From Mycobacteriales bacterium (GTDB taxonomy: Bacteria > Actinomycetota > Actinomycetes > JAFAQI01 > DASSKL01): DNA of 64,000 bases. Of this stretch, positions 25,571 to 46,067 are shown piece by piece. Below the pieces are notes generated by a model. It was not told the DNA's origin. It saw nothing but the letters and a program-made list of their open reading frames with translations, and did no database searches. The stretch's first letter is position 1; every line of letters starts with the position of its first letter. Position numbers and translations under genes: made by a program. The stretch is from contig DASSKL010000008.1 in assembly GCA_035690485.1 (NCBI GenBank), positions 62,586 to 126,585 on the forward strand, read 5' to 3'.

Positions 25571-26218
25571 ATGGCCGGCATCGCGTTCGTGCACCCGGGA
25601 CGGGTGCCCTACCTTGACGCCTGGCAGCAGCAGCAGGAGCTGCACGCCCGACGGGCCGCCGGCGACGTCGGCGACAGCGTGCTGCTGCTGGAGCACGATC
25701 CGGTCTACACCGCGGGCCGGCGCACGTCGGCCTTCGAGCGACCCGCCGGCGACCCCGGTGCACCGGTCGTCGACGTCGACCGCGGCGGCAAGATCACCTG
25801 GCACGGCCCCGGGCAGCTGACCGGCTACCCGATCGTCGCGCTGCCCGAACCGCTCGACGTCGTGTCCTACGTCCGCCGCCTGGAAACCGCGCTCATCGGC
25901 ACCTGCGCGGATCTCGGCCTCGCCACGGTCCGGGTCCCCGGCCGCAGCGGCGTCTGGGTGCCGGCCGACGGGAACGGCCCCGACCGCAAGGTCGCCGCGA
26001 TCGGCGTGCGGGTCGCCCGCGGCGTGACGATGCACGGATTCGCGCTCAACTGCGACTGCGACCTCACGTGGTTCGACCGCATCGTGCCGTGCGGCATCAC
26101 CGACGCCGGCGTGACCTCGCTCACCCGCGAGCTCGGCCGTCCCGTCACGGTGGCCGACGCGATGCCCGTCGTGGAACGCCACCTGCTCGCCGTCCTGGAG
26201 CCCGACCTTGTCGGCTGA
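25571..26218 (+). CDS. lipB: Octanoyltransferase LipB
   Basis: [20 protein letters not shown], the catalytic Cys region [10 protein letters not shown]. 215 aa. Confidence 0.9.
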
Positions 26219-27167
26219 GGCACCCGACACCGCGATCGGGCCCGACGGCCGCCGGCTGCTGCGGCTGGAGGTGCGCAACGCCGCCGTACCGATCGAGCGC
26301 AAGCCCCCCTGGATCAAGACGCGCGCCCGCATGGGCCCCGAGTTCGCCGCGCTGAAGTCGATGGTCCGCTCCGAGGGCCTGCACACGGTCTGCGAGGAAG
26401 CAGGCTGCCCCAACATCTACGAGTGCTGGGAGGACCGGGAGGCGACGTTCCTCATCGGCGGCGAGCAGTGCACCCGGCGCTGCGACTTCTGCCAGATCGC
26501 CACCGGCCGCCCCGCACCGCTCGACCGCGACGAGCCGCGCCGCGTCGCGGAGTCCGTGCAGGCGATGGGGCTGCGCTACGCGACCGTCACCGGCGTGACG
26601 CGCGACGACCTGCCCGACGGCGGTTCGTGGCTGTACGCCGAAACCGTGCGGCAGATCCATGCGCACGTGCCCGGCTGCGGGGTCGAGGTGCTGATCCCCG
26701 ACTTCGACGGCATCCCGGAGCAGCTCGCCGAGGTCTTCTCGGCCAAGCCGCAGGTGCTCGCCCACAACGTCGAGACCGTGCCCCGGATCTTCCGCCGGAT
26801 CCGGCCGGGATTCCGCTACCAGCGCTCGCTCGACGTGCTGACCGCCGCGCGCGCGGCCGGGCTGGTCACGAAGTCAAACCTCATCCTCGGCCTGGGCGAG
26901 GAGCGCGCCGAAGTCGTCGAGACCATGCAGGCGCTGCACGCCGCCGGCTGCGAGCTGTTGACGATCACGCAGTACCTGCGCCCCTCACCCCGCCACCATC
27001 CCGTCGTGCGCTGGGTGCACCCGGACGAGTTCGTCGAGCTGGCGCGGGAGGCCGAGCAGATCGGCTTCATCGGCGTGCTCAGCGGTCCGCTGGTGCGCTC
27101 GTCGTACCGCGCCGGACGCCTCTACAGCCAGGCCGTCGAGGCTCGCGGCACGCGCACGTCGGGCTGA
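26208..27167 (+). CDS. lipA: Lipoyl synthase LipA
   Basis: [13 protein letters not shown] and [10 protein letters not shown] radical-SAM/auxiliary cluster motifs. N-terminus ...[12 protein letters not shown] matches mycobacterial LipA. Apparent TTG start overlapping the lipB stop. Confidence 0.9.
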
Positions 27168-27191
27168 CCAGGCCTCACCCGGGCCGACCGT

Positions 27192-27881
27192 ATGCTGGCC
27201 GGCATGGCCCGAGACGACTCCAAATCCGGCGGCCGGCTCGAGCAGATCAAGCTGGTCTACTCGTTCACCCGCGAACGCGACCCCCAGATCCTGCTCTGGA
27301 TCGCGCTGCCGGCGATCGCCATCTTCGCCGTGCTGCTGGCACTCGGCTTCGTCTTCGGGCACCCGATCTACCTCGGCGTGATCGGGTTCATCGCTGCCCT
27401 GCTCTGGATGACCAGCATCTTCGGTCGCCGCTCGATGTCTGCGCAGTACGCCAGTGTCGAGGGCCAGCCCGGCGCCGCGGCCGCCGTCCTGTCCTCGCTG
27501 CGCGGCACGTGGAAGGTGCAGCCCGCGGTCGCGCTCAACCGCAACCAGGACCTCGTGCACCGCGCGGTCGGCCGGCCCGGCATCGTGCTCGTCGGCGAGG
27601 GCGCACCGAGCCGGGTGGGGCCGCTCATCGCCCAGGAGCGCAAGCGGGTCACCCGGATCGCGGGCGACATCCCGATCTACGAGGTGCAGGTCGGCGCCGA
27701 AGAAGGTCAGGTCGACCTGCGCAAGCTGCAGGCGCACCTCGGCAAGCTGCCGCGCAACCTCAAGCCGCGTGAGGTCGACGCGGTCGACAACCGGCTGCGT
27801 GCACTGGGTGGCGCCGCCATGCCGGTGCCGAAGGGCCCGCTCCCCCGCGGCGGCCGGATCCCGCGCGGCAAGATGCGCTGA
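27192..27881 (+). CDS. DUF4191-family membrane protein (Rv2219-like)
   Basis: Basic N-terminus, two TM helices. It follows lipA as in mycobacteria. The start may be ATG 27192 or 27204. Confidence 0.75.
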   Translation: MLAGMARDDSKSGGRLEQIKLVYSFTRERDPQILLWIALPAIAIFAVLLALGFVFGHPIYLGVIGFIAALLWMTSIFGRRSMSAQYASVEGQPGAAAAVLSSLRGTWKVQPAVALNRNQDLVHRAVGRPGIVLVGEGAPSRVGPLIAQERKRVTRIAGDIPIYEVQVGAEEGQVDLRKLQAHLGKLPRNLKPREVDAVDNRLRALGGAAMPVPKGPLPRGGRIPRGKMR

Positions 27882-27927
27882 ACCCGCGGCGATCCCCGGC
27901 GGGGGCCAGGTGCGTCCGACGCAGCGG

Positions 27928-28383
27928 CTAGGCGCGCACGACGACGGTGCCGGTCGCCCGGTCGTGCAGCCCGCGTCCGTCGCGGTCCGTGAACAGCACG
28001 GTGAAGATCAGCGCGAGCAGCACCGCTCGGGGCACCGCCCACCAGCCGATGCCTGCGTGCTGCGTCCGGCGCGCCACCGAGATCACGCGAAGCCCGGTGA
28101 GGCGCATGCCGGCGCTCTGCCCGCCGAGCCCCACGAGCACGGCGTACTCCACGAGGAACACCAGCGTGCTCCAGATGCCGGTGTGCACCGACCCCGCCGG
28201 GATCGTCGCCACGAGCCAGGACAGCACCGCATCGACCGCGAACGCCACGAACCGTGGACCGAGCCCCACGGCGGACCCCGGCCCGCTCGCCGGTAGCCCC
28301 AAGGACTGCCCGCGGTAGTCGTGCAGCTCGGAGCCCGCCGGCGGCGCATCGAGCCACGAGCCGGAGATCCGCGGGGAGGCCAT
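27928..28383 (-). CDS. RDD-family membrane protein (Rv2219A-like)
   Basis: 151 aa with 3 TM and an RDD-like pattern. Conserved position between the DUF4191 gene and glnA. Confidence 0.7.
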   Translation of the reverse strand: MASPRISGSWLDAPPAGSELHDYRGQSLGLPASGPGSAVGLGPRFVAFAVDAVLSWLVATIPAGSVHTGIWSTLVFLVEYAVLVGLGGQSAGMRLTGLRVISVARRTQHAGIGWWAVPRAVLLALIFTVLFTDRDGRGLHDRATGTVVVRA

Positions 28384-28414
28384 GGCTCCACGGTAACCGC
28401 CGCGATGATGCGGC

Positions 28415-30640
28415 TCAGAGCGACAGCTCGAACCAGACCGTCTTCGCCAGGTCCGTCGACTCGACGCCCCAGCGACGGGCCAGGTGCTCGATCAGGTGCA
28501 GGCCGCGCCCGCCCTCCGCCGCAGCGTTGGGTCGCCCGCGCCGCAGCGGTGCGTGCGGAGCCTGGTCGACCACCTCGACGCGGACGCCGTCGGTCGCGAG
28601 GCGCAGTGTGCGCAGGCGCAGCGACGTCCCCGCATGCCGCACCGCGTTGGTGACCACCTCGCTCACGAGCAGCGTCGCGGTCTCGACGAGCTCGTCGAGA
28701 CCCCATGACGCCAGCACGTGCTCGACGGCGGAGCGCGCCTGCGCCGGTGACTGGATGTCCGCGGGCAGCTCCTGCACGAGCTCGCTGATGGGCTGACCCT
28801 CGCCCGCGGGCAGGGTCCACAGCGCGAGCAGGGCGACGTCGTCGTCGGATGCGGGCTGCACCGCGAGCGCCGCCTCGCAGGCCGCCTCCGCCCCGCGCAC
28901 TCCGTCGACCGCGCGAGCCAGCCGGCGCATGCCCTCGTCGACAGGTAGGTCGGGACTCTCGACGAGCCCGTCGGTGTAGAGGAGCAGCAGCGAGCCGAGC
29001 GGGAGGGTGACGACGCGTTCGCCGTACGAACCGAGGCCGACGCCGAGCGGGGGACCTGGTTCGAGCGGCAGGAAGGCCGCCGGGTCGCCGTGCGACACCA
29101 GCAGCGGCGGCGGATGGCCGGCGCAGGCGAGCAGCGCGCGGTCGGTGGTCGGGTCCCACTCGACGTAGCAGCAGGTGACGATCAGCGCGTCGTCGAGGGA
29201 GGCCACGAGCCGGTCGAGGCGACCCAGGATGCCCGCGGGGCTGTGCCCTTCCAGGACGTAGCCACGGATGGCCGCCAGGACCTGCCCCATGACCGCGGCG
29301 GCACGGACCCCGCGGCCCATGACGTCGCCGACGACGAGCCCCACACACCCCGAGGGCAACGGCACGACGTCGTAGAAGTCGCCGCCCACCGACATGCCGC
29401 GGGTCCCGGGCAGGTAGCGCACGGCCACCTCGGCGCCGGCCACGGCCGGCAGGTCGACCGGCAGCAGCGACCGTTGCAGGGTGTGCGCGATCTCGCTCTG
29501 CTGATGGAAGAGCCGCGCGTTGTCGAGTGCCAGCGCGAGCCGGCCGGCGAGCTCCCTCATCTCGGCCAGGTCATCGGCACCGAGGGGCGGGCGCTGACCG
29601 ATCGTCGCCATGGTGAGCACGCCGAGTCCGCGCCCGTGCGCCCGCAACGGCAGGACCAGCCCCGACCCCAGGTCGATCTCGTGCAGGAGCGCGAGCTGCG
29701 CCGCCTCGTCGACCAGGTCGCGGTAGTCGTCATCGCCCCGCTGGAACAACCGCGGCAGCCCGCTGTCCATCGTCGAGCGGATGAGGTCGCCACCGCGCCC
29801 GTCGAGGGTCCGGGCGAATCCGTTCAGGGCGTGGCCGATGAGCGGGTCGGCATGGTCGCCGCCGGCGATCTGCCACGTGTCGTCGGGGCCGGCGAGCACG
29901 ACGATCGCCACGTCGGCCAGGCGGTCGGTCGCCAGCCGGCACAGCTCCTCGCACAGCGGCCGGGCCTCGGTCACCCCTGCGAACAGCCGCCCCGACTCGG
30001 CGAGCAGCTCCAGCCGGTCGCGAGAGCGCCGCTCGACCGAGATCATGCGAGCGCGGTGCAGCGCGACGGAGCACTGGGCGATGACGGTGTCGAAGAACGA
30101 GAGGTTGGCCGGGTCGGTCAGGAGCCCGCCGTCGGCGAAGCTGGCCGACAGCACGCCGAGGACCTCACCGCCCTGGACGAGGGGTTCGCAGACGTACGCC
30201 GCGCCGACACTCGCCCCGCCCAGCAGTCCGGGGTAGCGCTCGTCGCGCTCCGCGACGGACAGCAGGGTGACGCGCTGCGCGTGCAATGCGGACTCGGCAG
30301 CGGGCGCGCGCGCGTCGAGCGGCATGTCGGTGAGGCAGGCGATGACGTCAGCGGGGTAGCCGACGTGGCCCTGCAGGGCCAGCATGCCCCGCTCGCGATC
30401 GAGCATCCAGACCGCGCCGGCCACCGCGCCGAGCAGCGACAGTCCGCTCTCCACCATGGTGCGCACGACGGCTTCGACGGCGAGGGCGCCGAGCAGGTCG
30501 GCGCTGACGGCCTGGAGCCGGCGCAGCCGTTGCGCCACCTGCTCCGTCGAGGCGTGCGCGAGCTGCTCCTCGTCGAACACGCCGAAATCCTTCGGACGAA
30601 GCGGCTCCCCCTGCGGAGGCACCGGCGGCGACACGCTCAT
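28415..30640 (-). CDS. Multidomain regulator with N-terminal GAF-like region(s), a PP2C/SpoIIE phosphatase domain and a C-terminal HATPase_c (anti-sigma/RsbW-like) domain
   Basis: 741 aa. PP2C motifs (GGDFYDV..., VGDVMGRGV..., LLLYTDGLVE). The C-terminal ATPase pattern VSEVVTNAVRHAG... GRGLHLIEHLARRWG is like GHKL anti-sigma kinases. Confidence 0.8.
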   Translation of the reverse strand: MSVSPPVPPQGEPLRPKDFGVFDEEQLAHASTEQVAQRLRRLQAVSADLLGALAVEAVVRTMVESGLSLLGAVAGAVWMLDRERGMLALQGHVGYPADVIACLTDMPLDARAPAAESALHAQRVTLLSVAERDERYPGLLGGASVGAAYVCEPLVQGGEVLGVLSASFADGGLLTDPANLSFFDTVIAQCSVALHRARMISVERRSRDRLELLAESGRLFAGVTEARPLCEELCRLATDRLADVAIVVLAGPDDTWQIAGGDHADPLIGHALNGFARTLDGRGGDLIRSTMDSGLPRLFQRGDDDYRDLVDEAAQLALLHEIDLGSGLVLPLRAHGRGLGVLTMATIGQRPPLGADDLAEMRELAGRLALALDNARLFHQQSEIAHTLQRSLLPVDLPAVAGAEVAVRYLPGTRGMSVGGDFYDVVPLPSGCVGLVVGDVMGRGVRAAAVMGQVLAAIRGYVLEGHSPAGILGRLDRLVASLDDALIVTCCYVEWDPTTDRALLACAGHPPPLLVSHGDPAAFLPLEPGPPLGVGLGSYGERVVTLPLGSLLLLYTDGLVESPDLPVDEGMRRLARAVDGVRGAEAACEAALAVQPASDDDVALLALWTLPAGEGQPISELVQELPADIQSPAQARSAVEHVLASWGLDELVETATLLVSEVVTNAVRHAGTSLRLRTLRLATDGVRVEVVDQAPHAPLRRGRPNAAAEGGRGLHLIEHLARRWGVESTDLAKTVWFELSL

Positions 30641-30740
30641 CGCCGGTGGCCGGCTCGACGCCGGGCGGTGGTGCCCGTCACCATGCGACGGTAGCGCCGT
30701 CGGGTGGACAATCGCTGACGGCTACCCCGACTTCCGCTGC

Positions 30741-30778
30741 GTAACCCTCGCGAAACATCCGGGATACGGCTCGGAAAC
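30741..30778 (+). promoter_or_regulatory. Double GlnR box (gTnAc-n6-GaAAc x2) upstream of glnA
   Basis: gtaac-cctcgc-gaaac at 30741..30756 and gatac-ggctcg-gaaac at 30763..30778, with half-site starts 22 bp apart. They lie 73-110 bp upstream of the glnA ATG (30851, RBS GGGAGG). Confidence 0.6.
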
Positions 30779-30850
30779 CGCGTCGGCGTACGTTCATCCG
30801 CGGGCAACCACCAGGCCACAGGGGCCCGCACGGGCCCACGGGAGGATTAG

Positions 30851-32275
30851 ATGTTCACCAGCGCGGACGAGGTTCTCGCCTACATCTCCGATCACGACGT
30901 GAAGTTCGTCGATGTCCGGTTCTGCGACCTGCCGGGCGTCATGCAGCACGTCTCGATCCCGGCGGAGAACTTCGGGCGGCGGGTGTTCGAAGAGGGCCTG
31001 ATGTTCGACGGTTCCTCGATCCGCGGCTTCCAGCAGATCCACGAGTCGGACATGCTGCTGCTGCCCGACCCGACGAGCGCCGTGGAGGACCCATTCCGTC
31101 AGCACAAGACGCTGGTCCTCAACTTCTTCATCCACGACCCGTTGACCGGTGAGGCCTACAGCCGCGACCCGCGCAACATCGCCCGCAAGGCCGAGGACTA
31201 CGTGCGAGGCTCGGGCATCGCGGACACGGCCTACTTCGGCCCGGAGGCGGAGTTCTACATCTTCGACTCGATCCGCTACGACTCGACGCCGCACTCGACC
31301 TACCACTACATCGACTCGGTCGAGGCCGCGTGGAACACCGGCCGCGACGAGGACGGCGGCAACAAGGGCTACAAGCCGGCGTACAAGGGCGGATACTTCC
31401 CGACCCCGCCGACCGACCACTTCATCGACCTGCGCGCGGAGATGGTGCGCAAGCTGCTGGAGACCGGACTCGACGTCGAGCTGCACCACCACGAGGTCGG
31501 CACCGCCGGCCAGTCGGAGATCGGCTTCCGGTTCGGCACGCTGCTCAAGACGGCCGACAACCTCATGTGGTTCAAGTACGTCGTCAAGAACGTCGCGCTG
31601 GCCGCGGGCCACACGGTGACGTTCATGCCGAAGCCCATCTTCGGTGACAACGGCTCGGGCATGCACTGCCACCAGTCGCTGTGGAAGGACGGCGCCCCGC
31701 TGTTCTACGACGAGGTCGGCTACGCGGGGCTGTCCGACACTGCGCGCTACTACATCGGCGGCCTGCTCAAGCACGCGCCCGCGCTGCTCGCCTTCACCAA
31801 CCCGACGACCAACTCCTACCGGCGGCTGGTGCCGGGCTACGAGGCTCCGGTCAACCTGGTCTACTCGCAGCGCAACCGCTCGGCCTGCTGCCGGATCCCG
31901 ATCACCGGTACCAACCCGAAGGCCAAGCGCATCGAGTTCCGGGTGCCCGACCCCTCGTGCAACCCCTACCTCGCGTTCGCAGCGATGCTGATGGCCGGCG
32001 TCGACGGCATCCGCAACAAGATCGAGCCCCCGGAGCCGATCGACAAGGACCTCTACGAGCTGCCGCCCGACGAGCACGCCGCGGTCGCGCAGGTGCCCGG
32101 TTCGCTGGAGCGGGTGCTCGACGAGCTCGAGGCCGACCACGAGTGGCTGCTCGAGGGCGGTGTCTTCACGCCGGACGCGATCGACACGTGGCTCGACTAC
32201 AAGCGGGTGCACGAGGTCGACCCGATCCGGCTGCGCCCGCACCCGTACGAGTTCCAGATGTACTACTCCATCTAG
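30851..32275 (+). CDS. glnA: Glutamine synthetase type I (GlnA1-like)
   Basis: 474 aa. The full GSI signature, including the adenylylation-site region and N-terminus [29 protein letters not shown]. Confidence 0.95.
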
Positions 32276-32353
32276 CGCGCCCGACATCCGCTTCCGGCTC
32301 GACCGTCGCGAAGGCCCTGGCGCGGCAACCGGCGACCTGAGCGGGGCTCGTGC

Positions 32354-35300
32354 GTGCCCCGGATTCTCCCGGTTGCGGTTGCCGCGGACGCGGCTGGCGT
32401 GGATCCTCAGCACATGGGGGGACCGACGGGCCGGGCGCAGCACGCTGCCCGGCTACGTCCGTACGTGGCCAGCCTTGTGCTGACCTGGCTCCGCGACTCG
32501 CCCCAGGCAACGTGGCGTGAGGTCGACGGCACGCTGGTCTTCGTCGACATCTCGGGCTTCACCAAGCTGACCGAGCGGCTGGCCGAGCGCGGCAAGGGCG
32601 GCGCCGAGGAGATGAGCGACATCCTCGACGCCACGTTCGGCGAGCTGCTTTGGGTCGCCTACTCCTACGGCGCGCAGCTGGTGAAGTGGGGCGGCGACGC
32701 GGTCCTGCTGCTGTTCACCGGAGACGGGCACGCGCCGCGGGCCTGCCGCGCGGCGTACGACATGCGGGCGACGATGCGCCGCATCGGCCACCTGCGCACG
32801 TCGGCCGGTGCCGTGACCCTGCGCATGAGCGTCGGCATCCACAGCGGCACGTTCCACTTCTTCCTGGTCGGCACGCTGCACCGCGAGCTGCTCGTCACAG
32901 GACCGGGCGCGACCACCACGGCCCGCATCGAGGGCGTCGCGGAAGCCGGCGAGATCGGCCTGTCCCCGCAGACGGCCGCCCTGCTGGCGCCGAACCTCGT
33001 CGGCGTGGAGAAGACGCCTGGCGTGTGGCTGCTGCGCGGCCGGCCACGGGTGCCGGAGACTCCGCGCCGGACGACGCTCGACCTGGCCGGCATCGACGTC
33101 GCGAGCTGCCTGACTGCACCGACCCGCGAGCACCTGCTGGCAGGTGGCACCGACGGTGAGCACCGGCAGATCGCGGTCGCGTTCGTGGAGTTCAAGGAGA
33201 CCGACGCCTTGCTGGCCGCCCAGGGTCCGGGCGCGCTGGCCGCCGCCCTGCACGAGGTCGTCTCGGTGACGCAGGACGCCTGCGCGCGTCACGGGGTGAC
33301 GTTCTGGGAGACCGACATCAGTCCCGACGGCGGCAAGATCATGCTCGTGGGCGGAGCCCCGCGCAGCACCGACGACGACGCCGGCGCGATGCTGGCGACC
33401 GCGCGCGACGTGGCCGACGGCGTGCGAACGCTGCCTTTACGCATCGGGGTCAACCACGGCCGGGTGTTCTCCGGCGACTTCGGCCCCGACTACCGGCGTA
33501 CCTACTCGGTCAAGGGCGATGCGGTCAACCTCGCCGCCCGCGTCATGGGCAAGGCAGCGCCCGGCGAGGTCTGGGCGACGGAGGGGGTCCTGGAGCACTC
33601 GCGCCTGTCGTTCGATGCCGAGAGGCTCGAGCCCTTCCTGGTCAAGGGCAAGGCCAGGCCGGTGCAGGCCTACCGGCTCGGCCGGGTGATGCAGGGACGG
33701 GTCGGGACCCCCGACGACGACCTGCCACTCATCAGTCGCGAACGCGAGCTCGCCGTCCTCCACGACGCGACGGCTGCCGCAGCCGCCGGCCGCGGCTGTC
33801 TGGTCGAGCTGGTCGGGGAACCGGGCATCGGCAAGAGCCGCCTCCTGGCCGAGCTCGCCTGCCGGTCACCCGACCTGCGGACCGTCGACGTCGGCTGCGA
33901 CGCCTACCACTCTTCGACGCCGTACGCACCGTTCCGCACGTTGCTGCGCGAACTACTGGACATCCCGTACGACGCCGAGCCGGGAACGGCGGGAGAGCTG
34001 CTCGCGACGCGGCTGCACGACACGGCACCGGACCTGCTCCAGTGGCTGCCCCTGGTCGCGGTCGTCGTCGACGCCGACGTCGCGCCCACGGCGGCGACCA
34101 GCGCGTTGGACGAGAAGTTCCGCAAGGGCCGGCTGGAGCAGGTGACCACCGAGCTGCTGCACCGGCTGCTTCCGAGCGCAACCCTCGTCGTGGTGGAGGA
34201 CGCCCATCTCGCCGACGACGCGTCCGCCGACCTCCTCGCCCACGTCGCCGAGAGCATCGCAAGCCGCCCCTGGGCCATGGTGGTCAGCCGGCACACCTCC
34301 CCCGGCGGTTTCGCGCCGCAGGCGCCGTCCGCCCGTATCGACCTGCTGCCGCTCGACGACTTCGCCGCGCAGACCATGCTCGCGATCGCCGCCGAGGAGT
34401 CGCCGCTCCCGCCGCACGAGTTCGCGGCACTCGCCCAGCGCGCCGAGGGCAACCCGCTGTTCCTGTTGCAACTGCTCGACGCCGTGCGTCGCACCGGCAG
34501 CGTGGACGAGCTGCCCGACTCCATCGAAGGCGTCATCACGGCGCGCATCGACCGGCTGCCCCCGCGGGAACGGCGCCTGCTCCGGACCGCGGCGGTGCTC
34601 GGCGTCCGGTTCGAACCGCGTGTCCTCGACGCGGTGCTCGACGCCGACGGCGACCGGCTCGAGGCCGAACGGCTGGCCGACTTCCTGCAGCTCGGCGACG
34701 ACGGGATGGTGGCCTTCCGCCATGCCCTGGTGCGCGACACGGCCTACGAGGGGTTGCCGTTCACCCGTCGGCGCGAGCTGCACGGTCGGGCCGGCGACGT
34801 GCTCGAGCGGCTGTACGGCGAGCGCACCGACGAACGCGCGGACCTGCTGTCGCTGCACTTCCTGCAGGCAGGTCGTTTCGAAAGGGCATGGCGCTATGCC
34901 CGCGTGGCCGGGCAACGCGCCGACGGCGCTTACGCCTACGTGGAGTCGGCCGTCTTCTACGAGCGCGCGCTCGCCGCCGCCCGGCGCAGCGCAGACGCCG
35001 ACACGGCGGCCATCGCGGACGTCACCGAACGCCTGGGCGACGCGCGCTCGCGGCTCGGCGAGTTCGCCCGGGCCGATGCGGCCTACGCCGACGCGGCGCG
35101 GGCGCTGCGTTCGCAGCCCCTGGACCGAGCCCGCATCTTCTACAAGCAGGCGGACATCTGCGTACGGGAGGGAGCGCACAGCCCGGCCCTGCGGCGGCTC
35201 AGCCGGGGGCTCACGGTCCTGTCCGACCAGCCGGGAATCGAGGCCCGGCGGCTGCGGGCCCGGCTCAGCTCCTTCTACGGACTCGTCCGGCACAACCAGG

Positions 35301-36271
35301 GGCGCGACCGCGACGCCGCCCGGTGGGGCCGCCGCGCCGTGGTCGAAGCAGAGACCTCGCGTTCGCCGGCGACCCTGGCGGAGGCGTTGCTGCATCTCGA
35401 CGTCTGCCTGACCTTCGCCGACGACGGGGGCGGCAAGAACGCGCGGCGGGCGCTGGGCCTCTGGCGCCGGCTCGGCGACTCCTGGCAGGAGGCCCGCACG
35501 CTGAACCAGCTGGGCATCCGCGCCTACTTCGGGGGGCGCTGGCCCGAGGCGCTCGCGCACTACCGCGACGCGGCGGCAGCCTTCGACCGAGCCGGCGACC
35601 AGTGGATGGCCTCCGTGGTGCGAGGCAACCTCGCCGAGACGCTGTCGGACCAGGGCCATGTCGAAGAGGCGATCGGCATCCTCGAGCTGACACTGCCGGC
35701 CTGGCGCGCGTCGAGCGCGCCCACCATGGTGGGCTTCGGCCTCAGCCTGCTCGCGCGCGCGCACGTGCGGGCCGGCCGGTTCGAGGAAGCGGCACCGCTG
35801 TACGCCGAGGCGCGCGCGTTGTTCACCGAGCACGGCGAGCCGGTCGAGGTGCTGGAAACCGATGCGCGCCGCGTCGAGTCGTCCGTGCTGCAGGGACGCG
35901 GCGTCGCGGTGTTGGGCGACGTCGCGGAGCTGCTCGAGCGATGCCATCGGCTGCCCGGCGGTGAGGGTCTGGCCGCCACGGCCCACCGCCTGCACGGGCT
36001 GGCGCTCGCCCAGCTGGGCGACCTACTCGAAGCCCGCGCGGCGCTGCAGCGCAGCATCGCCTCCGCCCAGCAGCGGGGCGCCACCCACGAGATCGTCTGG
36101 GCCCTCGACGCCCTCGATCAGCTGGCCGGCGCCAGTCAGCAGCTGCCGATCCCGAGCCAGTCGACCGAGCTGCGGTCGCTCATGGACGGTCTGGGCATGG
36201 TGCAGATCGCCCGCCCTGGCCCGACCGGTCACGCCATCGACGTGACCCGCGACGCAACCATCGCCCGGTAG
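32354..36271 (+). CDS. Tandem class III nucleotidyl cyclase (CHD x2) / AAA+ STAND ATPase / TPR-repeat protein
   Basis: CHD1 has VFVDISGFT, KWGGDAVLLLF and GIHSG. CHD2 has VAFVEFKETD, RIGVNHGRVFSGDFG and VKGDAVNLAARV. The P-loop is GEPGIGKSRLL. C-terminal TPR-like helical repeats. 1305 aa. The start is either GTG 32354 or ATG 32414. Confidence 0.8.
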   Translation: MPRILPVAVAADAAGVDPQHMGGPTGRAQHAARLRPYVASLVLTWLRDSPQATWREVDGTLVFVDISGFTKLTERLAERGKGGAEEMSDILDATFGELLWVAYSYGAQLVKWGGDAVLLLFTGDGHAPRACRAAYDMRATMRRIGHLRTSAGAVTLRMSVGIHSGTFHFFLVGTLHRELLVTGPGATTTARIEGVAEAGEIGLSPQTAALLAPNLVGVEKTPGVWLLRGRPRVPETPRRTTLDLAGIDVASCLTAPTREHLLAGGTDGEHRQIAVAFVEFKETDALLAAQGPGALAAALHEVVSVTQDACARHGVTFWETDISPDGGKIMLVGGAPRSTDDDAGAMLATARDVADGVRTLPLRIGVNHGRVFSGDFGPDYRRTYSVKGDAVNLAARVMGKAAPGEVWATEGVLEHSRLSFDAERLEPFLVKGKARPVQAYRLGRVMQGRVGTPDDDLPLISRERELAVLHDATAAAAAGRGCLVELVGEPGIGKSRLLAELACRSPDLRTVDVGCDAYHSSTPYAPFRTLLRELLDIPYDAEPGTAGELLATRLHDTAPDLLQWLPLVAVVVDADVAPTAATSALDEKFRKGRLEQVTTELLHRLLPSATLVVVEDAHLADDASADLLAHVAESIASRPWAMVVSRHTSPGGFAPQAPSARIDLLPLDDFAAQTMLAIAAEESPLPPHEFAALAQRAEGNPLFLLQLLDAVRRTGSVDELPDSIEGVITARIDRLPPRERRLLRTAAVLGVRFEPRVLDAVLDADGDRLEAERLADFLQLGDDGMVAFRHALVRDTAYEGLPFTRRRELHGRAGDVLERLYGERTDERADLLSLHFLQAGRFERAWRYARVAGQRADGAYAYVESAVFYERALAAARRSADADTAAIADVTERLGDARSRLGEFARADAAYADAARALRSQPLDRARIFYKQADICVREGAHSPALRRLSRGLTVLSDQPGIEARRLRARLSSFYGLVRHNQGRDRDAARWGRRAVVEAETSRSPATLAEALLHLDVCLTFADDGGGKNARRALGLWRRLGDSWQEARTLNQLGIRAYFGGRWPEALAHYRDAAAAFDRAGDQWMASVVRGNLAETLSDQGHVEEAIGILELTLPAWRASSAPTMVGFGLSLLARAHVRAGRFEEAAPLYAEARALFTEHGEPVEVLETDARRVESSVLQGRGVAVLGDVAELLERCHRLPGGEGLAATAHRLHGLALAQLGDLLEARAALQRSIASAQQRGATHEIVWALDALDQLAGASQQLPIPSQSTELRSLMDGLGMVQIARPGPTGHAIDVTRDATIAR

Positions 36272-36274
36272 GAC

Positions 36275-37288
36275 TCAGAAGAACTTCGGGTCCTGAGGGT
36301 TGCCGGGAACCTGGACGATCGCGTGCTGGGCGGCCTTCACCTTGAACAGGTCGCTGATGCATGGCTGGTCGCTAACCCCGGCGGCAGCGAGCGCGCTGCA
36401 CAGTGGGAGCGGCCCCTGCGTTGGACTGGTCTCCGACTGGGGCGGCAGGAGCGTGCCGTCGCTGCCTTCGGTGTAAAACCCGTAGGGCGCCGACATGCAG
36501 ACTTCCCAATGGGGCGTGCCGTTGTCCGTATAGGCGTTCGTCGTCTGCTTGTCCCAGGCCAGCTCCACCGACTTGCTCCCGGTCGTCGAGTCGGAGCTGA
36601 GCATCTGGTCGACGACGACGTACTCCGGTCGCGTTTCCGACACGCAGGCCTCGCTGTTCGGCGCGACGTTCATGAATAGTGAGCCGACCCTGGTGTCGAA
36701 CGCCACGGTGCCAGACGTGTGCACCCCGCTGTCCGTGCAAGGGCTGGCGGTGCACACGATGCCGGCCACGGTCAGCTGCGGAGCCGACCCGCTCAACAGG
36801 AAGTCGTTGCCCGACCCGGAGAAGTCGTTGGACTGCTTGACCGCCGAGCCGATCGTGTAGGTGCCGTCGGTGGTCGGGGTGAACGACACCGGAATGACGA
36901 CGGAGCCCGAGTCCGGCACGCCCGAGCTGCTGGACGACGAACGCAGCTGCACGACGAACTGCGAAGCGCTGCTGGTCACCGTCGCGGAGAAGTCGGCACA
37001 TGCGGGCACGCTCGGGCAGATGAGGGCGCCCACGTTAGGAGTCCCGCTGTAGGGCAGCGCGAACGTGATGTTGGCAGATGCGAAGTACTGGTTGGCGGTG
37101 ATGTTGCTCAACGTGACCTGCACCGTGGTTTGCGCGCCGGCCGGCACGTTGGTCGGCGAGATGCTCGCGGTGTAGAACTTCTTGGCCGCTTGCGCGGATG
37201 CAGGAGCACCGACGAGGGTCGCTGCCACCAGGGCGGCGACTCCGACGACCACGGCTGTGCCGAGGTGCCTCCGACGACGTGCTCTCAT
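36275..37288 (-). CDS. Secreted protein (signal peptide) with Cys-containing C-terminal domain ending in QDPKFF
   Basis: N-terminus MRARRRRHLGTAVVVGVAALVAATLVGAPASAQA. Ser/Thr-rich beta-sandwich-like middle. C-terminal domain shared with 37446..38765 (W.VCM.APY.F ... PC.S ... VPG..QDPKFF). Confidence 0.65.
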   Translation of the reverse strand: MRARRRRHLGTAVVVGVAALVAATLVGAPASAQAAKKFYTASISPTNVPAGAQTTVQVTLSNITANQYFASANITFALPYSGTPNVGALICPSVPACADFSATVTSSASQFVVQLRSSSSSSGVPDSGSVVIPVSFTPTTDGTYTIGSAVKQSNDFSGSGNDFLLSGSAPQLTVAGIVCTASPCTDSGVHTSGTVAFDTRVGSLFMNVAPNSEACVSETRPEYVVVDQMLSSDSTTGSKSVELAWDKQTTNAYTDNGTPHWEVCMSAPYGFYTEGSDGTLLPPQSETSPTQGPLPLCSALAAAGVSDQPCISDLFKVKAAQHAIVQVPGNPQDPKFF

Positions 37289-37445
37289 AGCCGCCCCCCT
37301 CCGATCGGCGGGTCACCGCCGCACGGCACGCATGCTGGACCGTTGGCCAGGCCGCGACAAGAGCACGGCCGGACCAGTCTCGTCAGACGGGATCGCCCGC
37401 GCAGCCACGAAATACCGCCTACCGGTCGGAACGTCGAGACCCACG

Positions 37446-38765
37446 TCAGAAGAACTTCGGGTCCTGGGCGCTGCCCGGCACGAGCACCTCGGCGAACTGC
37501 TGGCCCGAACCCGTCTTCCGCAGGATCGACACGCAGGGCCCCGGCGCCGCGGCCGGCAGCGCCGCGCAGCCAGGCAGCAGACCGACGTACGACGTGCCGG
37601 CGTGGGTTGCCGGCACCAGGGCGCCCTGCCCGTCGGCGGCCTGGAAGGCGTACGGCGCCTGCATGCACACGGGCCACTGCGACGCGCCGTTGTTGGTCTC
37701 CTGCTGGGTGAACTCCTTGGTCCACGTGAGGTCCACCGTCTTTGCGGAGTCGGACATCACCGTGACCTCGACGCCGCTCGGACGCGCCAGACCGGCGCAG
37801 GGTGCGGCACTGTCGACCAGCCCCAGCGAGATCGTCGAGGGGGTGTCGGCCGACGCGCTCACGGTCGACATCGGCTGACCGGTGAGCGTCAACGTGCAGG
37901 GCGACTGGTCGGGCGGGCAGGTCTTCTGCGCGAGGGGCGCGGTGACGACCGCCGGTTGGGAGACGAACCGGTTCGGCAGCCAGCCCTGCTCCACCCCGAG
38001 CTCGATCAGCCGGGAGAGGAAGCCCGCCATCTCGTCGCGCTGCACGCCCTGGTCCTGGTTCGACAGCGTGCCGCCGGCCAAGCCCGGCGCGCCGACGAAG
38101 AGCCCCAGACCCGCGACGGCGTTGAGGTAGGGGTTCTCGAAGACCCCGCCGTCGTCGTCGGCGAAGTAGTCCTGACCGGACGCTGCGGGCGTCGCGCCCG
38201 AGAAGACCTTCAGCGCGTTGTAGATGAACTTCGACATCTCTCCACGGGAGACGATCGCGTCGGGTGCGTAGCTCCCGTCCGCATAGCCGCTGACCATCCC
38301 CGCGTTGGTGAGCGCGTCGACCGCGCTCCGGAACTGCTGCGGGATGCCGGCCGCGTCGGTGTAGCTCGTCGCGGGTGCGGCCGTCGACCAGGCATGACCG
38401 GCCGCGGTGCCCAACCGGTAGAAGAATGCCGCCATCTGGTCACGCAGCACCGGCGCCGTCGGGGCGTAGGTCGTCGCCGAGGTGCCGTCGGTGACGCCGT
38501 AATCGGCGGCACAGTAGATCTGCAGCCGGAAGAAGTCTCTGTCGACGTCCGTGAAGCCCGGGTTGGTCAGCGAGGCAGGGGGGCAGGCTGTGCCGGTGTC
38601 GATGGGAGCGGGCGGCAGGGCCGTCTGGTTGCCGGGAAAGCTGCCCGAAGCCCACGCCGAGCTGATCGGGCTGACCCCCAGGGCGACGACCAGGGTGCCC
38701 GCAAGGACCCCCGCGGCCGCGGCCGGCAGCACGCCACGCGCGCTCGACCTCCGAACGAGCTTCAT
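37446..38765 (-). CDS. Secreted protein with three SLH (S-layer homology) repeats and the shared C-terminal QDPKFF domain
   Basis: Start MKLVRRSSARGVLPAAAAGVLAGTLVVALGVSPISSAWA, preceded by GGGGGGA. Three ~50-aa repeats fit SLH (FTDVDRDFFRLQIYCAADYGVTDG...PVLRDQMAAFFYRL, YTDAAGIPQQFRSAVDALTNAGMVSGYADGSYAPDAIVSRGEMSKFIYNAL, and a third ending QRDEMAGFLSRLIEL). Confidence 0.7.
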   Translation of the reverse strand: MKLVRRSSARGVLPAAAAGVLAGTLVVALGVSPISSAWASGSFPGNQTALPPAPIDTGTACPPASLTNPGFTDVDRDFFRLQIYCAADYGVTDGTSATTYAPTAPVLRDQMAAFFYRLGTAAGHAWSTAAPATSYTDAAGIPQQFRSAVDALTNAGMVSGYADGSYAPDAIVSRGEMSKFIYNALKVFSGATPAASGQDYFADDDGGVFENPYLNAVAGLGLFVGAPGLAGGTLSNQDQGVQRDEMAGFLSRLIELGVEQGWLPNRFVSQPAVVTAPLAQKTCPPDQSPCTLTLTGQPMSTVSASADTPSTISLGLVDSAAPCAGLARPSGVEVTVMSDSAKTVDLTWTKEFTQQETNNGASQWPVCMQAPYAFQAADGQGALVPATHAGTSYVGLLPGCAALPAAAPGPCVSILRKTGSGQQFAEVLVPGSAQDPKFF

Positions 38766-38928
38766 GCAAGTCCCCCCTACCGGGGAGCGTGGGCCGCACC
38801 CCAGAGGCATCCTCAGGTCTCGGTGATCACCGCACAACCGAAACGCAGAAGACGCCGCCTCAGACCGGGGCAATCGACCGCACCGCCGGACGAGTCAGGC
38901 GCACCGGGCGATCCCGCCCGGCAAAGTC

Positions 38929-40671
38929 CTAACCCGCGCTGGACTCGGGGAACACCTGCTCGGCTACCGCGGCCTGCTCGGGCACCGCGACGGAGGGACG
39001 GTAGGTGGGGTGCGTGCGCTCGAGCTGTCGGCGTACACCGCTGACGGTCGCGGGCGAGAGCGGCGCCTCGTTGAGCGCATTGAGGAACTCGTCGCCGGCG
39101 ATGCGCAGCAGCCGGCAGCCGTCGCCTGCCCGCACGGTCGCGGTCCGGGGGATGCGTTCCAGCAGGCCGATCTCGCCGAAGTACGCCGGCGCCTCGAGCA
39201 TCCGCAGGAACTGCTCGCTGACCCCCTCGCCGCGAGCCGACACCTGGACCGACCCGTCGAGCAGGACGTACAGGTCGTCGGCGGCCTCCCCCTCGGTGAC
39301 GATCGGGAGGCCGGGCTCCACCAGCATGTCGCTCCCGGTGCGGGCCAACCGCTCCAACACCGGACGGGAGGCCGAGGCAAAGATGCCGAGCCGTTGGAGC
39401 ACCGCGATCCGCGGTTCCAGGGTCTGCAGCAGGTGCACCGCCTCGCGGTCCATGCCGGCGAGCATCGGGTAGCAGCCGACGACGAGCAGCGGCAGCGCGG
39501 CGCCGTAGACGAGCAACGTGCCGTTGGTGCCCAGACCGTGCAGCAGCGCCGGGGTGATCAGGGCACCGATGGAGATCCCGCCGAGCACGAGGGCCCAGAA
39601 GGCGCCGAACACCCGGGCGATCAGGTCGGGTGCCAACGTGCGCTGCAGCGCGGTGATGGCGAGGGTGTCGACGACGAGCGTGCCACCGCCCCGGATGACC
39701 TGCAGCACGAACGCGATCTCCGGCGAGTGCACCGTGGCCATCACGGCGGTGGGCACGCAGTACACCGCCATCCCGCCGACGATCATCAGCGCCAGCCGCG
39801 GCGAGGCGGCCAGCCGGTTGACCAGCCCGGCGGCGAGGACACCGCCGACGCCGAGCGCGGCCAGCAGGTAGCCGTAGCCGTCCTCGCCAGTTCCGAGCCT
39901 GGTCTTGCTCAGCACGGCGAACAGCACCGTGTCCGTGCCGTAGAAGAAGCTGGCCAGCACGCTGAACCACACGAGGATCGCGGTGCGGCGGGAGGCGACG
40001 ATTGCCCGGTAGCCCACGCGGATCTGCTGCAGCGGCCCGCCGTCCTGGGTCACGTCCGTGGGCACGCTGCGGACGCCGGCACGGCTGACCAGCGCTGCGG
40101 AGACCACGAACGTGCCCGCGTTGAAGGCGATGACGCCGGCCGGGCTCACCGCCGCGAGCATCGCCCCGCCCAGCGCAGGGCCGACGAGGATCGTCAGGTT
40201 GTCGATCGTGCCCTTGAGACCGTTGGCCGCCGCCAGGTCCTTCTCGCCGACGACCTGTGGGATCAGCGCGGACGTCGCGGGGTCGTACGCCGACATCAGG
40301 ATCGAGTTGAGCGCGCCGATCGCGATGACGACGGCCGAGTGCGCGTGCAGGGCCATGGCGGTCGCCATCGCCGCCATCAACCCCGTCGCCGTCAGGTCGC
40401 AGGTGACCAGCACCCGCACCCGTTCGAAGCGCTCGGCGACGACGCCGGCGTAGGAGCTGAAGAGCAGGGCGCTGAGGAACCTGCCGAGGGTGGCCGCGGC
40501 CACCCACGCCGGGGAGTGCGTCTGCTGGTAGACGTAGACCACGAGCGCGACGTTGTAGGCCCAGCTGCCGGTTGCGGAGACGGCGAGGGCGCCGCTGAGC
40601 AGGCGGAAGTCCCGATGCCGCAGTGCACCGCGGTAGGTCCCCCGAGCCTGCCCGGCTACATCCGCGGTCAT
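38929..40671 (-). CDS. MFS transporter fused to a C-terminal cyclic-nucleotide-binding (CAP-family) domain
   Basis: About 12 TM in the first ~430 aa. The C-terminal ~130 aa carry the cNMP motifs FGEIGLL and RTATVRA. ATGA overlap with the upstream MBL gene at 40668..40671. Confidence 0.8.
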   Translation of the reverse strand: MTADVAGQARGTYRGALRHRDFRLLSGALAVSATGSWAYNVALVVYVYQQTHSPAWVAAATLGRFLSALLFSSYAGVVAERFERVRVLVTCDLTATGLMAAMATAMALHAHSAVVIAIGALNSILMSAYDPATSALIPQVVGEKDLAAANGLKGTIDNLTILVGPALGGAMLAAVSPAGVIAFNAGTFVVSAALVSRAGVRSVPTDVTQDGGPLQQIRVGYRAIVASRRTAILVWFSVLASFFYGTDTVLFAVLSKTRLGTGEDGYGYLLAALGVGGVLAAGLVNRLAASPRLALMIVGGMAVYCVPTAVMATVHSPEIAFVLQVIRGGGTLVVDTLAITALQRTLAPDLIARVFGAFWALVLGGISIGALITPALLHGLGTNGTLLVYGAALPLLVVGCYPMLAGMDREAVHLLQTLEPRIAVLQRLGIFASASRPVLERLARTGSDMLVEPGLPIVTEGEAADDLYVLLDGSVQVSARGEGVSEQFLRMLEAPAYFGEIGLLERIPRTATVRAGDGCRLLRIAGDEFLNALNEAPLSPATVSGVRRQLERTHPTYRPSVAVPEQAAVAEQVFPESSAG

Positions 40672-41558
40672 AGCGCAGCCACCTCTCCGATAGCGGGTGC
40701 GACCGGGGCGGCGCTCGGGGCCGCGGGAAGGTCGAACACCCGACCCTGCCGGCCGGCCTCGACCGGCACGGCGGCCCCGCGCTGCCCGGCGACGATGTCG
40801 TCTATCTGGTCGTCGGTGCGGGTCGGGTCGTGGTGGAACAGCACCAGCCGGCCGACGCCGGCCGACTCGGCCAGGCGGACGGCGTACTCCACGGTCGAGT
40901 GGCCGAGGAAGGCCAGCCGCGGGAACTCCGCCGCGACGTGCTGCGCGTCGTGGACGAGCACGTCGGCGCCGTCGGCCAGCTCCAGCGCGGCGTCGTGCAG
41001 GACCCCGTCACCCTGCTCCCCTGGCGACCAGGCGCTGGGCCCGTGGTCGGTGACGTAGGCAAGGGTCGACCTGCCGTCGGTGATCCGGTAGCCGATCGTG
41101 CGGCCGCCCTTGTGCGGGATCTCCCGCACCAGCACGTCGAAGCCCTCGACGCAGAGGCGCCCCGGCTCGATCCAGTCGAAGGTCCACCCGTCGCCGAGCT
41201 GCTCGGGCGTGATCGGGAAGTACGGCGGCCGCATGATGCCCGACAGCACCTCGACCGGGTCGCCGGGCTGTGCGGGCCCGCGCACGTCGACACGGGCGCC
41301 CGGCAGGAAGCCCGCACCGAAGAACGGCAGGCCCTGCCAGTGGTCCCAGTGCAGGTGGGTCAGCAGGATCGTGCCGGCGAACGGCTGCCCGCCGAGCAGC
41401 GCGGGCACCTCGCGCAGGCCGGTGCCGGCGTCGAGCAGCAGCGTCGGCGCTGCACCGTCGGCCGCCACGGCCACGCAGGAGGTGTGACCTCCGTAGCGGT
41501 CGTAGGCCGGGCCGGGCGCGGGCGTCGAGCCGCGGACACCGCACAGCCGCACCCGCAT
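40668..41558 (-). CDS. MBL-fold metallo-hydrolase
   Basis: HxHxDH motif LLTHLHWDHWQG and further His/Asp positions (HDAQH, HHD). 296 aa. Confidence 0.8.
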   Translation of the reverse strand: MRVRLCGVRGSTPAPGPAYDRYGGHTSCVAVAADGAAPTLLLDAGTGLREVPALLGGQPFAGTILLTHLHWDHWQGLPFFGAGFLPGARVDVRGPAQPGDPVEVLSGIMRPPYFPITPEQLGDGWTFDWIEPGRLCVEGFDVLVREIPHKGGRTIGYRITDGRSTLAYVTDHGPSAWSPGEQGDGVLHDAALELADGADVLVHDAQHVAAEFPRLAFLGHSTVEYAVRLAESAGVGRLVLFHHDPTRTDDQIDDIVAGQRGAAVPVEAGRQGRVFDLPAAPSAAPVAPAIGEVAAL

Positions 41559-41648
41559 GACGCCCCCCTCGTGCGCCGCCTGCGCACTCGCTCATCGAAT
41601 CGGTCCTGGGACGGGGCGGCAACCGAAACGGCCGAATTCGCGACCGGG

Positions 41649-44624: not shown

Positions 44625-44627
44625 CCG

Positions 44628-45968: not shown

Positions 45969-46067
45969 GGCGGCAGCGTACGGCCGGAAGATGTCAGCAG
46001 TGTGTCGCCACCCGGCTACCCCGAAGCGCTCCTAAACTGCGGGCGCCCCTGCCTGGCTAGTCCTGGA

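Follow-up and report, generated by a model that had tools for sequence, protein, structure and literature searches.

A 64,000-nt stretch of DNA from a Mycobacteriales bacterium (GenBank assembly GCA_035690485.1, contig DASSKL010000008.1, positions 62,586 to 126,585 of the forward strand), hereafter the window, encodes a large protein in which two class III cyclase homology domains (CHD1 and CHD2) are joined to a STAND-type nucleoside triphosphatase (NTPase) and tetratricopeptide repeat (TPR)-like repeats. This protein is the subject of the present analysis. Pfam detects in its open reading frame (ORF) two stretches of PF00211 (87.6 bits against a cut-off of 21.9), AAA_16 (residues 459–637), and several TPR families (residues 870–1240), and no helix-turn-helix family is among the matches. 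No transmembrane segment was found in the protein, the highest 19-residue Kyte-Doolittle hydropathy being 1.51. The ORF and its parts, with the basis of each boundary, are as follows:

32354–36271, + strand: whole ORF, GTG start, 1305 aa
32513–33016, + strand: CHD1, the C1-like half (residues 54–221; Pfam, alignment to soluble adenylyl cyclase, model)
33017–33157, + strand: C1–C2 linker (residues 222–268; predicted secondary structure)
33158–33691, + strand: CHD2, the C2-like half (residues 269–446; alignments, family conservation)
33314–33337, + strand: tip of the CHD2 β2–β3 hairpin, D321–K328, DISPDGGK (alignment, model secondary structure)
33728–34759, + strand: STAND-type NTPase module (residues 459–802; Pfam, motifs, fold match)
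34760–36193, + strand: TPR-like helical repeats, a putative sensor (residues 803–1280; Pfam, model, fold match)

The G+C content at third codon positions (GC3) of the ORF is 0.91, matching that of the other genes in this window of ~72% G+C, and is therefore coding-like. The start codon is ambiguous, the choice lying between GTG 32354, which has a weak GGGG 7 nt upstream, and ATG 32414. An identical protein (P0324, 100%) recorded on two metagenome contigs is 1285 aa long and begins at ATG 32414 (M21), and conservation among homologs sets in near residue 30, compatible with either start. A scan of positions 32100–36500 found neither a sigma-70-like promoter nor an intrinsic terminator, and no Rfam families were found across the whole window.

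An earlier note, made from the DNA letters alone, had proposed that the two CHDs are catalytically complementary and form an intramolecular pseudo-heterodimer. All of the motifs on which it relied are present in the ORF, in the domains to which they had been assigned: VFVDISGFT at residue 62 (D65), KWGGDAV at 111 (D115), and ATTTARIEG at 186 in CHD1, and FVEFKETD at 277 (E279) and GDAVNLAARV at 388 (N392 and R396) in CHD2. Sequence matches in the Protein Data Bank (PDB) cover many class III cyclases, the best being human soluble adenylyl cyclase (sAC; ADCY10), which aligns colinearly, with CHD1 on C1 and CHD2 on C2. Functional roles of the sAC residues are given in Table 1 of PMC12867704 and in PMC12250328. 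The corresponding positions in the present protein are:

32546–32548, + strand: D65, CHD1 metal-binding Asp, aligned with sAC D47
32684–32686, + strand: K111, CHD1, equivalent of sAC K95
32696–32698, + strand: D115, CHD1 metal-binding Asp, aligned with sAC D99
32912–32914, + strand: T187, CHD1, at the transition-state Asn position by alignment
32924–32926, + strand: R191, CHD1, at the Arg position, not conserved in the family
33188–33190, + strand: E279, CHD2, at the first metal Asp position, degenerate
33308–33310, + strand: E319, CHD2 base-facing position, aligned with sAC K334
33332–33334, + strand: G327, CHD2, at the second metal Asp position by alignment to Rv1625c-type cyclases
33506–33508, + strand: S385, CHD2 base-facing position, aligned with sAC T405
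33527–33529, + strand: N392, CHD2 transition-state Asn, equivalent of sAC N412
33539–33541, + strand: R396, CHD2 transition-state Arg, equivalent of sAC R416
33644–33652, + strand: K431-G-K433, CHD2, invariant in the family alignment

Alignment against human sAC and against Rv1625c-type cyclases alike shows that CHD1 keeps both metal-binding Asp residues and carries Thr at the Asn position, as had been read from the motifs. The degenerate first metal site and the retained Asn/Arg pair of CHD2 were likewise correctly recognized, but the loss of the second metal Asp in this domain (G327) had been missed, and the replacement of its base-recognizing Lys by Glu (E319) had been overlooked. Each CHD alone is incomplete and the halves are complementary: the class III core residue set of two Asp, Asn, and Arg is complete for one site only, assembled across CHD1 and CHD2.

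We searched 1.84 billion cluster representatives for homologs and obtained 1685 proteins at E < 1e-30, with at least 150 clusters (50% identity) at E < 1e-110. The best 150 of the 1685 proteins each align as one stretch over residues ~30–469, and most are 1250–1310 aa long. A family alignment was assembled from 218 full-length sequences, the query and 217 homologs. The full complementary pattern, i.e., both Asp residues in CHD1, no Asn at position 187, no Asp at position 279 or 327, and the Asn/Arg pair in CHD2, is present in 207 of the 218. Asp is found at position 65 in 217 sequences, the remaining row having a gap, and at position 115 in all 218; Lys occupies position 111 in 215, Asn position 392 in 215, and Arg position 396 in every sequence. 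The positions that are degenerate in the query are degenerate throughout: position 187 is Thr in 123 sequences and Ser in 88 and is Asn in none, position 191 is variable (Arg in 32), position 279 is Glu, His, Arg, Gln, and others, and position 327 is Gly in 200. The segment of CHD1 that corresponds to the invariant K431-G-K433 of CHD2 is not conserved. The pattern is also present in 71 of 80 loci from species-representative genomes. The complementary catalytic pattern is conserved and does not reflect chance.

The distribution of the family was surveyed by a pattern scan in which each species was represented by a single genome; it gave at least 600 candidate stretches, at least 576 of them encoding a relative. 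Among the loci listed, relatives are encoded mainly in the Acidimicrobiia, the Thermoleophilia (Gaiellaceae), the Actinomycetes (Nocardioides, Marmoricola, Intrasporangium, Agromyces, and Frankiaceae), and the Chloroflexota, including Chloroflexia. The closest genomic match among these loci is 61% identical, and the source organism is therefore not closely represented in the species-representative set. Annotations of the homologs are generic, e.g., [quoted passage not shown] The arrangement had been described in the earlier note as unusual for bacterial class III cyclases; it is indeed a minority arrangement, but with this many loci, and with bacterial sAC described in the literature (PMC6660944, PMC11006738), it is neither rare nor unreported.

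In a subclade with an E/T pair at the base-facing positions, represented by nine of the 80 loci (L021, L033, L035, L042, L043, L050, L054, L067, and L072), CHD2 has Ala where the transition-state Asn would be, and cyclase activity may be reduced or lost in these proteins. In another subclade (L020, L026, L029, L030, L037, and L038), the first and second metal positions of CHD2 are occupied by Asp and Val, respectively, and the base-facing pair is E/R. Its hosts are mostly Chloroflexota metagenome-assembled genomes (MAGs; four Chloroflexia and one Thermomicrobiales), L029 being a Gaiellaceae MAG.

An AlphaFold2 (AF2) model of residues 1–469, computed as a single chain from 111 sequences, has a mean predicted local distance difference test score (pLDDT) of 92.8 and a predicted template modeling score (pTM) of 0.89, and in it the two domains pack as one pseudo-heterodimer. 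When the model was compared with the PDB using Foldseek, ranks 1–24 were all human sAC (E 6e-31 to 1e-25, template modeling score [TM] 0.73–0.79, ~465 columns), and the next matches were to the C1a/C2a core of membrane adenylyl cyclase AC9 (TM 0.69–0.71). Single-domain bacterial cyclases align with just half of the model. The model thus predicts that CHD1 and CHD2 of a single chain pack against each other as the two domains of sAC do. The β2–β3 hairpin is four residues longer in CHD2 (316–323/326–333) than in CHD1 (108–113/116–121). Residue mapping, family conservation, and a confident model matching sAC and then AC9 together uphold the intramolecular C1/C2-like pseudo-heterodimer; of the likeness that had been drawn to mammalian adenylyl cyclases, the division of labor between C1 and C2 stands, but the closest analog is soluble ADCY10 rather than the membrane enzymes.

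Active sites might instead lie between chains, CHD1 of one molecule pairing with CHD2 of another under the drive of STAND oligomerization, an assembly that could be anticipated for STAND cyclases with a single CHD. STAND proteins of the MalT/Apaf-1 type typically oligomerize on activation, and an AF2 run on a single chain does not offer intermolecular pairing. The single-chain model is nevertheless confident and reproduces the intramolecular sAC arrangement down to the path of the linker, over which (residues 221–270) the mean pLDDT of every 10-residue block is at least 92, and we regard pairing between chains as highly improbable.

The likeness to human sAC (PDB 4CLF and 4USU), which also has two CHDs in one soluble chain folded as a pseudo-heterodimer, extends to individual residues. 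The metal-binding Asp residues lie on C1 (D47/D99 in sAC and D65/D115 here) and the Asn/Arg pair on C2 (N412/R416 and N392/R396), the C1 Lys K95 corresponds to K111, and a hydroxyl residue takes the place of the class IIIa Asp (T405 and S385). The β2–β3 hairpin of sAC C2 has the same four-residue extension as that of CHD2. In sAC, the N-terminal C1/C2 pseudo-heterodimer precedes an autoinhibitory motif and a presumptive NTPase (PMC6023465), with the P-loop at residues 516–523 and TPR-like motifs further on (PMC3475452); here a P-loop at residues 488–495 likewise follows shortly after C2 and precedes TPR-like repeats. The working definition of sAC in PMC6660944, two catalytic domains, a P-loop NTPase domain, and the absence of transmembrane segments, describes the protein, whose core fold is closest to sAC and which has the Asp pair on C1, the Asn/Arg pair on C2, and the P-loop NTPase after C2. 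There are also differences. Sequence identity is ~20%; E319 stands in place of K334, R176 lacks a conserved counterpart, and S159 is the residue opposite sAC K144 in the alignment. The C1–C2 linker is ~47 residues compared with ~68 in sAC, and no haem domain was detected in the protein.

We consider it likely that the protein is an sAC (ADCY10)-type class III nucleotidyl cyclase, soluble and consisting of a single chain, with one competent intramolecular site. CHD1 and CHD2 would fold back head to tail within the polypeptide to form a single active site at their interface, where D65 and D115 of CHD1 would hold two divalent cations and N392 and R396 of CHD2 would stabilize the transition state. 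The triphosphate would be held by K431 and K433 and probably by R157, and E319 and S385, possibly with K328, would face the base.

A further possibility is that the tandem CHDs bind ATP without cyclizing it and serve the STAND module as sensor or scaffold. There is a solved bacterial precedent among the fold matches, 6YII of Pseudomonas aeruginosa, a single-chain tandem-CHD pseudo-heterodimer entitled "class III adenylyl cyclase-like ATP-binding protein" (Foldseek rank 30, TM 0.56, root mean square deviation 11.9); the canonical base-recognizing Lys is missing from the present protein, and the Ala-bearing subclade described above has lost the transition-state Asn. The present protein differs from 6YII in keeping all of the core catalytic residues. 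The four core residues and the KGK motif show strict conservation, each on its proper half, in the query and ~95% of the family, which is hard to account for without catalysis, and the model is much nearer to sAC (TM 0.77) than to 6YII. Genes for a cyclic-nucleotide-binding protein and a member of a phosphodiesterase family are linked to the cyclase gene, which also argues circumstantially for catalysis. A pseudo-cyclase is therefore very unlikely in our view, and we infer that the sAC-type site is active.

The region downstream of the tandem cyclase contains intact NTPase motifs:

33815–33838, + strand: Walker A, GEPGIGKS (G488–S495), K494 in 215 of 218 sequences
34184–34201, + strand: Walker B, LVVVED (L611–D616), D616 in 211 of 218 sequences
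34214–34216, + strand: D621, invariant (218 of 218)

Both motifs agree with the STAND patterns, GxxGxGK[ST] for Walker A and hhhh[DE]D for Walker B, and the NTPase, arm, and repeat sensor expected of a STAND protein are all present. A model of residues 451–1305 (pLDDT 94.2) comprises an NTPase of alpha/beta fold, an arm of helical and winged-helix domains, and ~24 paired helices. Its top fold match was the STAND-TPR protein PH0952 (6MFV; E 1.4e-14, 724 columns), and the other matches were all TPR proteins; a sequence search of the same residues against the PDB gave no match, so this relative was seen by fold comparison alone. PH0952 and the MalT clade of STAND NTPases share with the present protein the NTPase, the helical and winged-helix arm, and the TPR superhelix, and PF17874 (TPR_MalT) is annotated on many of the homologs. 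The global TM to 6MFV is low (0.25–0.31), consistent with a different inter-domain conformation. The effector here is a tandem cyclase and not a DNA-binding domain. With Walker A and B conserved and 6MFV as the best fold match, the assignment as a STAND P-loop ATPase with TPR repeats, already made from the letters, is well founded.

Signal-dependent activation through the STAND module, which the earlier note had suggested, may reasonably be inferred. Since the catalytic dimer is built into the chain, the STAND/TPR region probably does not act by bringing the cyclase domains together. The more probable mode is nucleotide-dependent release of autoinhibition, or an allosteric change, coupled to nucleotide exchange and prompted by binding of a ligand or partner to the TPR region, and autoinhibitory control of this sort would resemble that attributed to the sAC C terminus. 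The role of sAC's C-terminal region in mammals is itself largely unknown (PMC3918592, PMC6660944).

Several observations weigh against assignment to the sAC type, or against a simple adenylyl cyclase. CHD2 scores 43 bits against Rv1625c-type cyclases and 17 bits against sAC C2, so at the sequence level it is nearer to the former, and sAC orthology is not established; what can safely be said is that the protein is of the sAC type in architecture and fold. The contacts assigned in both pockets derive from alignment and secondary structure rather than from model coordinates. No characterized member was found among the homologs. The bicarbonate-site Arg of sAC, R176, aligns to A190, and the position is Val or Ala across the family. 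Position 319, which corresponds to sAC K334 and Rv1625c K296, is Glu, Gly, or Ala and is Lys in none of the 218 sequences, and the query pair E319/S385 is guanylyl cyclase-like, a Glu with a small residue, the canonical adenylyl cyclase pairs K/D and K/T being absent.

The last of these points bears on the product. Position 385 is Ser in 112 sequences and Thr in 97, i.e., Ser or Thr in 209 of 218, and it covaries with position 319: 90 sequences have E/S, 55 have G/T, and 27 have A/T. A single MAG (JANPMG01; L028 and L062) holds both A/T and G/T paralogs. S323 and D321 were considered as equivalents of the specificity Lys, the alignment to Rv1625c shifting the four-residue gap, and were rejected in favor of E319 because the strand register of the AF2 model and the ungapped sAC alignment both put the extra residues at the hairpin tip. 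Sequence pairs that specify the purine are Lys/Asp or Lys/Thr for ATP and Glu/Cys or Glu/Ala for GTP (PMC6592433). With the Lys absent and a Glu and small residue in place of the canonical pair, cAMP cannot be assumed to be the product.

A protein of the same architecture could therefore make cGMP or have relaxed nucleotide specificity, the E319/S385 subclade being a guanylyl cyclase. Rv0386 has non-canonical specificity residues and a guanylyl cyclase side activity. In the query, E319 occupies the adenylyl cyclase Lys position and S385 the Asp/Thr position, Glu with a small residue is the kind of pair stated to specify GTP in guanylyl cyclases (PMC6592433), and covarying pairs that never include Lys suggest subclades differing in base recognition. 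Against this, replacement of the substrate-binding Asp by Thr or another hydroxyl residue is the hallmark of class IIIb adenylyl cyclases (PMC2613629), and S385 supplies such a hydroxyl. The Lys of sAC reaches the base only via water (PMC12867704), so its loss need not alter specificity, and the variation of position 319 among Glu, Gly, and Ala speaks against its strictly determining specificity. The adjacent strand carries the conserved K328, which might replace the missing Lys, and the hydrolase encoded nearby belongs to the family of a cAMP phosphodiesterase. On balance, a guanylyl or relaxed cyclase seems unlikely, and the product of the sAC-type site would most likely be cAMP.

The mirror-image second site, with T187 in CHD1 and E279 and G327 in CHD2, would be catalytically dead. 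At the tip of the CHD2 hairpin, D321 is invariant, D325 is highly conserved, and K328 is 98% conserved; the extended hairpin is in the same place as the "FDKG" loop of sAC C2 (PMC12867704). Judged from alignment and secondary structure, D321, D325, and K328 together with K111 of CHD1 probably line this degenerate second pocket. Because these conserved residues are kept, the second site would most likely be a regulatory pocket, comparable to the forskolin and bicarbonate sites of mammalian cyclases. Of the two residues of the sAC bicarbonate site, Lys95 and Arg176, the first is retained as K111 (215 of 218 sequences) and the second is not. Non-mammalian sACs that lack bicarbonate-site residues do not respond to bicarbonate (PMC12867704); given this precedent and the lack of a conserved R176 equivalent, a bicarbonate response of the present protein is not predictable.

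Among other known systems, the membrane adenylyl cyclases (AC9, PDB 6R4P) show the same division of labor, with one active and one degenerate regulatory site, but they have twelve transmembrane helices, regulation by G proteins and forskolin, a class IIIa K/D pair, and no STAND/TPR region. Mycobacterium tuberculosis Rv0386, Rv1358, and Rv2488c resemble the present protein in placing a class III CHD N-terminal to an AAA_16/STAND NTPase and TPR repeats. They have a single CHD, and so must homodimerize, and a C-terminal LuxR-type helix-turn-helix, whereas here there are two CHDs and the combination of one CHD with a LuxR/GerE helix-turn-helix is absent. Bacterial sAC is stated to have the NTPase domain also, with Kobayashi et al. 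2004 cited (PMC6660944). In Chloroflexus aurantiacus, according to PMC11006738 and PMC6660944, which cite Kobayashi, Buck & Levin 2004, such a cyclase is reported to have an sAC-like domain structure, including the P-loop NTPase, and to be bicarbonate responsive. The likeness of that enzyme to the present protein is drawn from its description in those citing papers; the present family is abundant in Chloroflexia too.

Bacterial sAC is already in the literature. The protein is a member of a large, uncharacterized bacterial sAC-type family. The full sAC blueprint of C1–C2 pseudo-heterodimer, STAND NTPase, and TPR repeats is no peculiarity of eukaryotes, since this large bacterial family conserves it strictly; the finding extends a known architecture without overturning current understanding. 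A soluble bacterial homolog for which confident models are obtained could be a tractable system for the study of STAND control over a preassembled pair of cyclase domains. What the enzyme makes is a directly testable question, raised by the absence of the Lys throughout the family and by the covariation of its E/S, G/T, and A/T pairs.

The backbone of the region from 26115 to 46031 of the window is lipA, DUF4191, glnA1 ... glnE, glnA2, and the cyclase gene falls in the gap separating glnA1 from glnE. Few homologs share the linkage to glnA, which was seen at 4–5 of 80 loci. Four genes on the opposite strand lie between the cyclase gene and glnE; they encode two predicted secreted proteins, a major facilitator superfamily (MFS) transporter with a cyclic-nucleotide-binding (CNB) domain, and a PF12706 protein. 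The last two are:

38929–40671, − strand: MFS transporter with a C-terminal cyclic-nucleotide-binding domain, candidate receptor of the cyclase product
40668–41591, − strand: PF12706 metallo-beta-lactamase-fold hydrolase with an HLHWDH motif, candidate Rv1339-type cyclic-nucleotide phosphodiesterase

Their genes overlap by 4 nt. The hydrolase gives a weak full-length match to the NCBIfam family "cyclic nucleotide-degrading phosphodiesterase," and Rv1339, a cAMP phosphodiesterase of actinobacteria, belongs to PF12706 (PMC9293780). Homologs of the hydrolase adjoin the cyclase gene in 10 of 80 loci and those of the CNB-MFS transporter in 4–7 of 80. Most of these cases belong to the query's own E/S subclade, and linked examples include L001, L005, L007, L010, L055, and L059, among others. 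This linkage, although circumstantial, suggests that the cyclase, the CNB-MFS transporter, and the PF12706 hydrolase constitute a module to make, sense, and degrade a cyclic nucleotide, and the transporter and phosphodiesterase candidates suggest a concrete output for the cyclase. If the product is cAMP, the transporter could sense it and the Rv1339-family hydrolase could break it down.

In a more far-reaching version, which we think unlikely, the E319/S385 subclade would be a widespread actinobacterial guanylyl or relaxed cyclase forming with these two linked candidates a self-contained, STAND/TPR-gated circuit for making, sensing, and degrading its product, with the second pocket binding a ligand other than bicarbonate.

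A cyclase with a nearby cyclic-nucleotide-binding membrane protein also invites comparison with antiphage defense, in which a Pycsar-like or Avs-like cyclase would make cCMP or cUMP for a cNMP-binding membrane effector. A PADLOC scan gave weak matches to PycC models (no higher than 32.6 bits), the CNB domain of the MFS protein matches Pycsar effector models, STAND NTPases are common in phage defense, and the base-specifying residues are non-canonical. These matches are at the level of single domains (CHD and CNB), however, and the family has a uniform length of ~1280 aa across its many loci in the Actinomycetota and Chloroflexota. The gene lies in a housekeeping lipA-glnA-glnE-glnA2 region, and the cyclase and CNB genes are not adjacent, being 2.6 kb and two genes apart on opposite strands. 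With weak domain-level matches only and no two-gene operon, we rejected the defense-system reading, which is exceedingly improbable, in favor of an sAC-type cyclase.

Other genes noted in the region are:

36275–37288, − strand: predicted secreted protein
37446–38873, − strand: predicted secreted protein with an SLH domain
28415–30640, − strand: 741-aa fusion of GAF, SpoIIE/PP2C phosphatase, and HATPase_c_2 (anti-sigma-factor-like kinase) domains

The product of 36275–37288 matched no Pfam or NCBIfam family. A ~120-residue domain at the C terminus is common to the two predicted secreted proteins (42% identity, E 6e-16), whose genes are adjacent, and each terminates in QDPKFF. The gene for the GAF–phosphatase–kinase fusion is divergent from glnA1.

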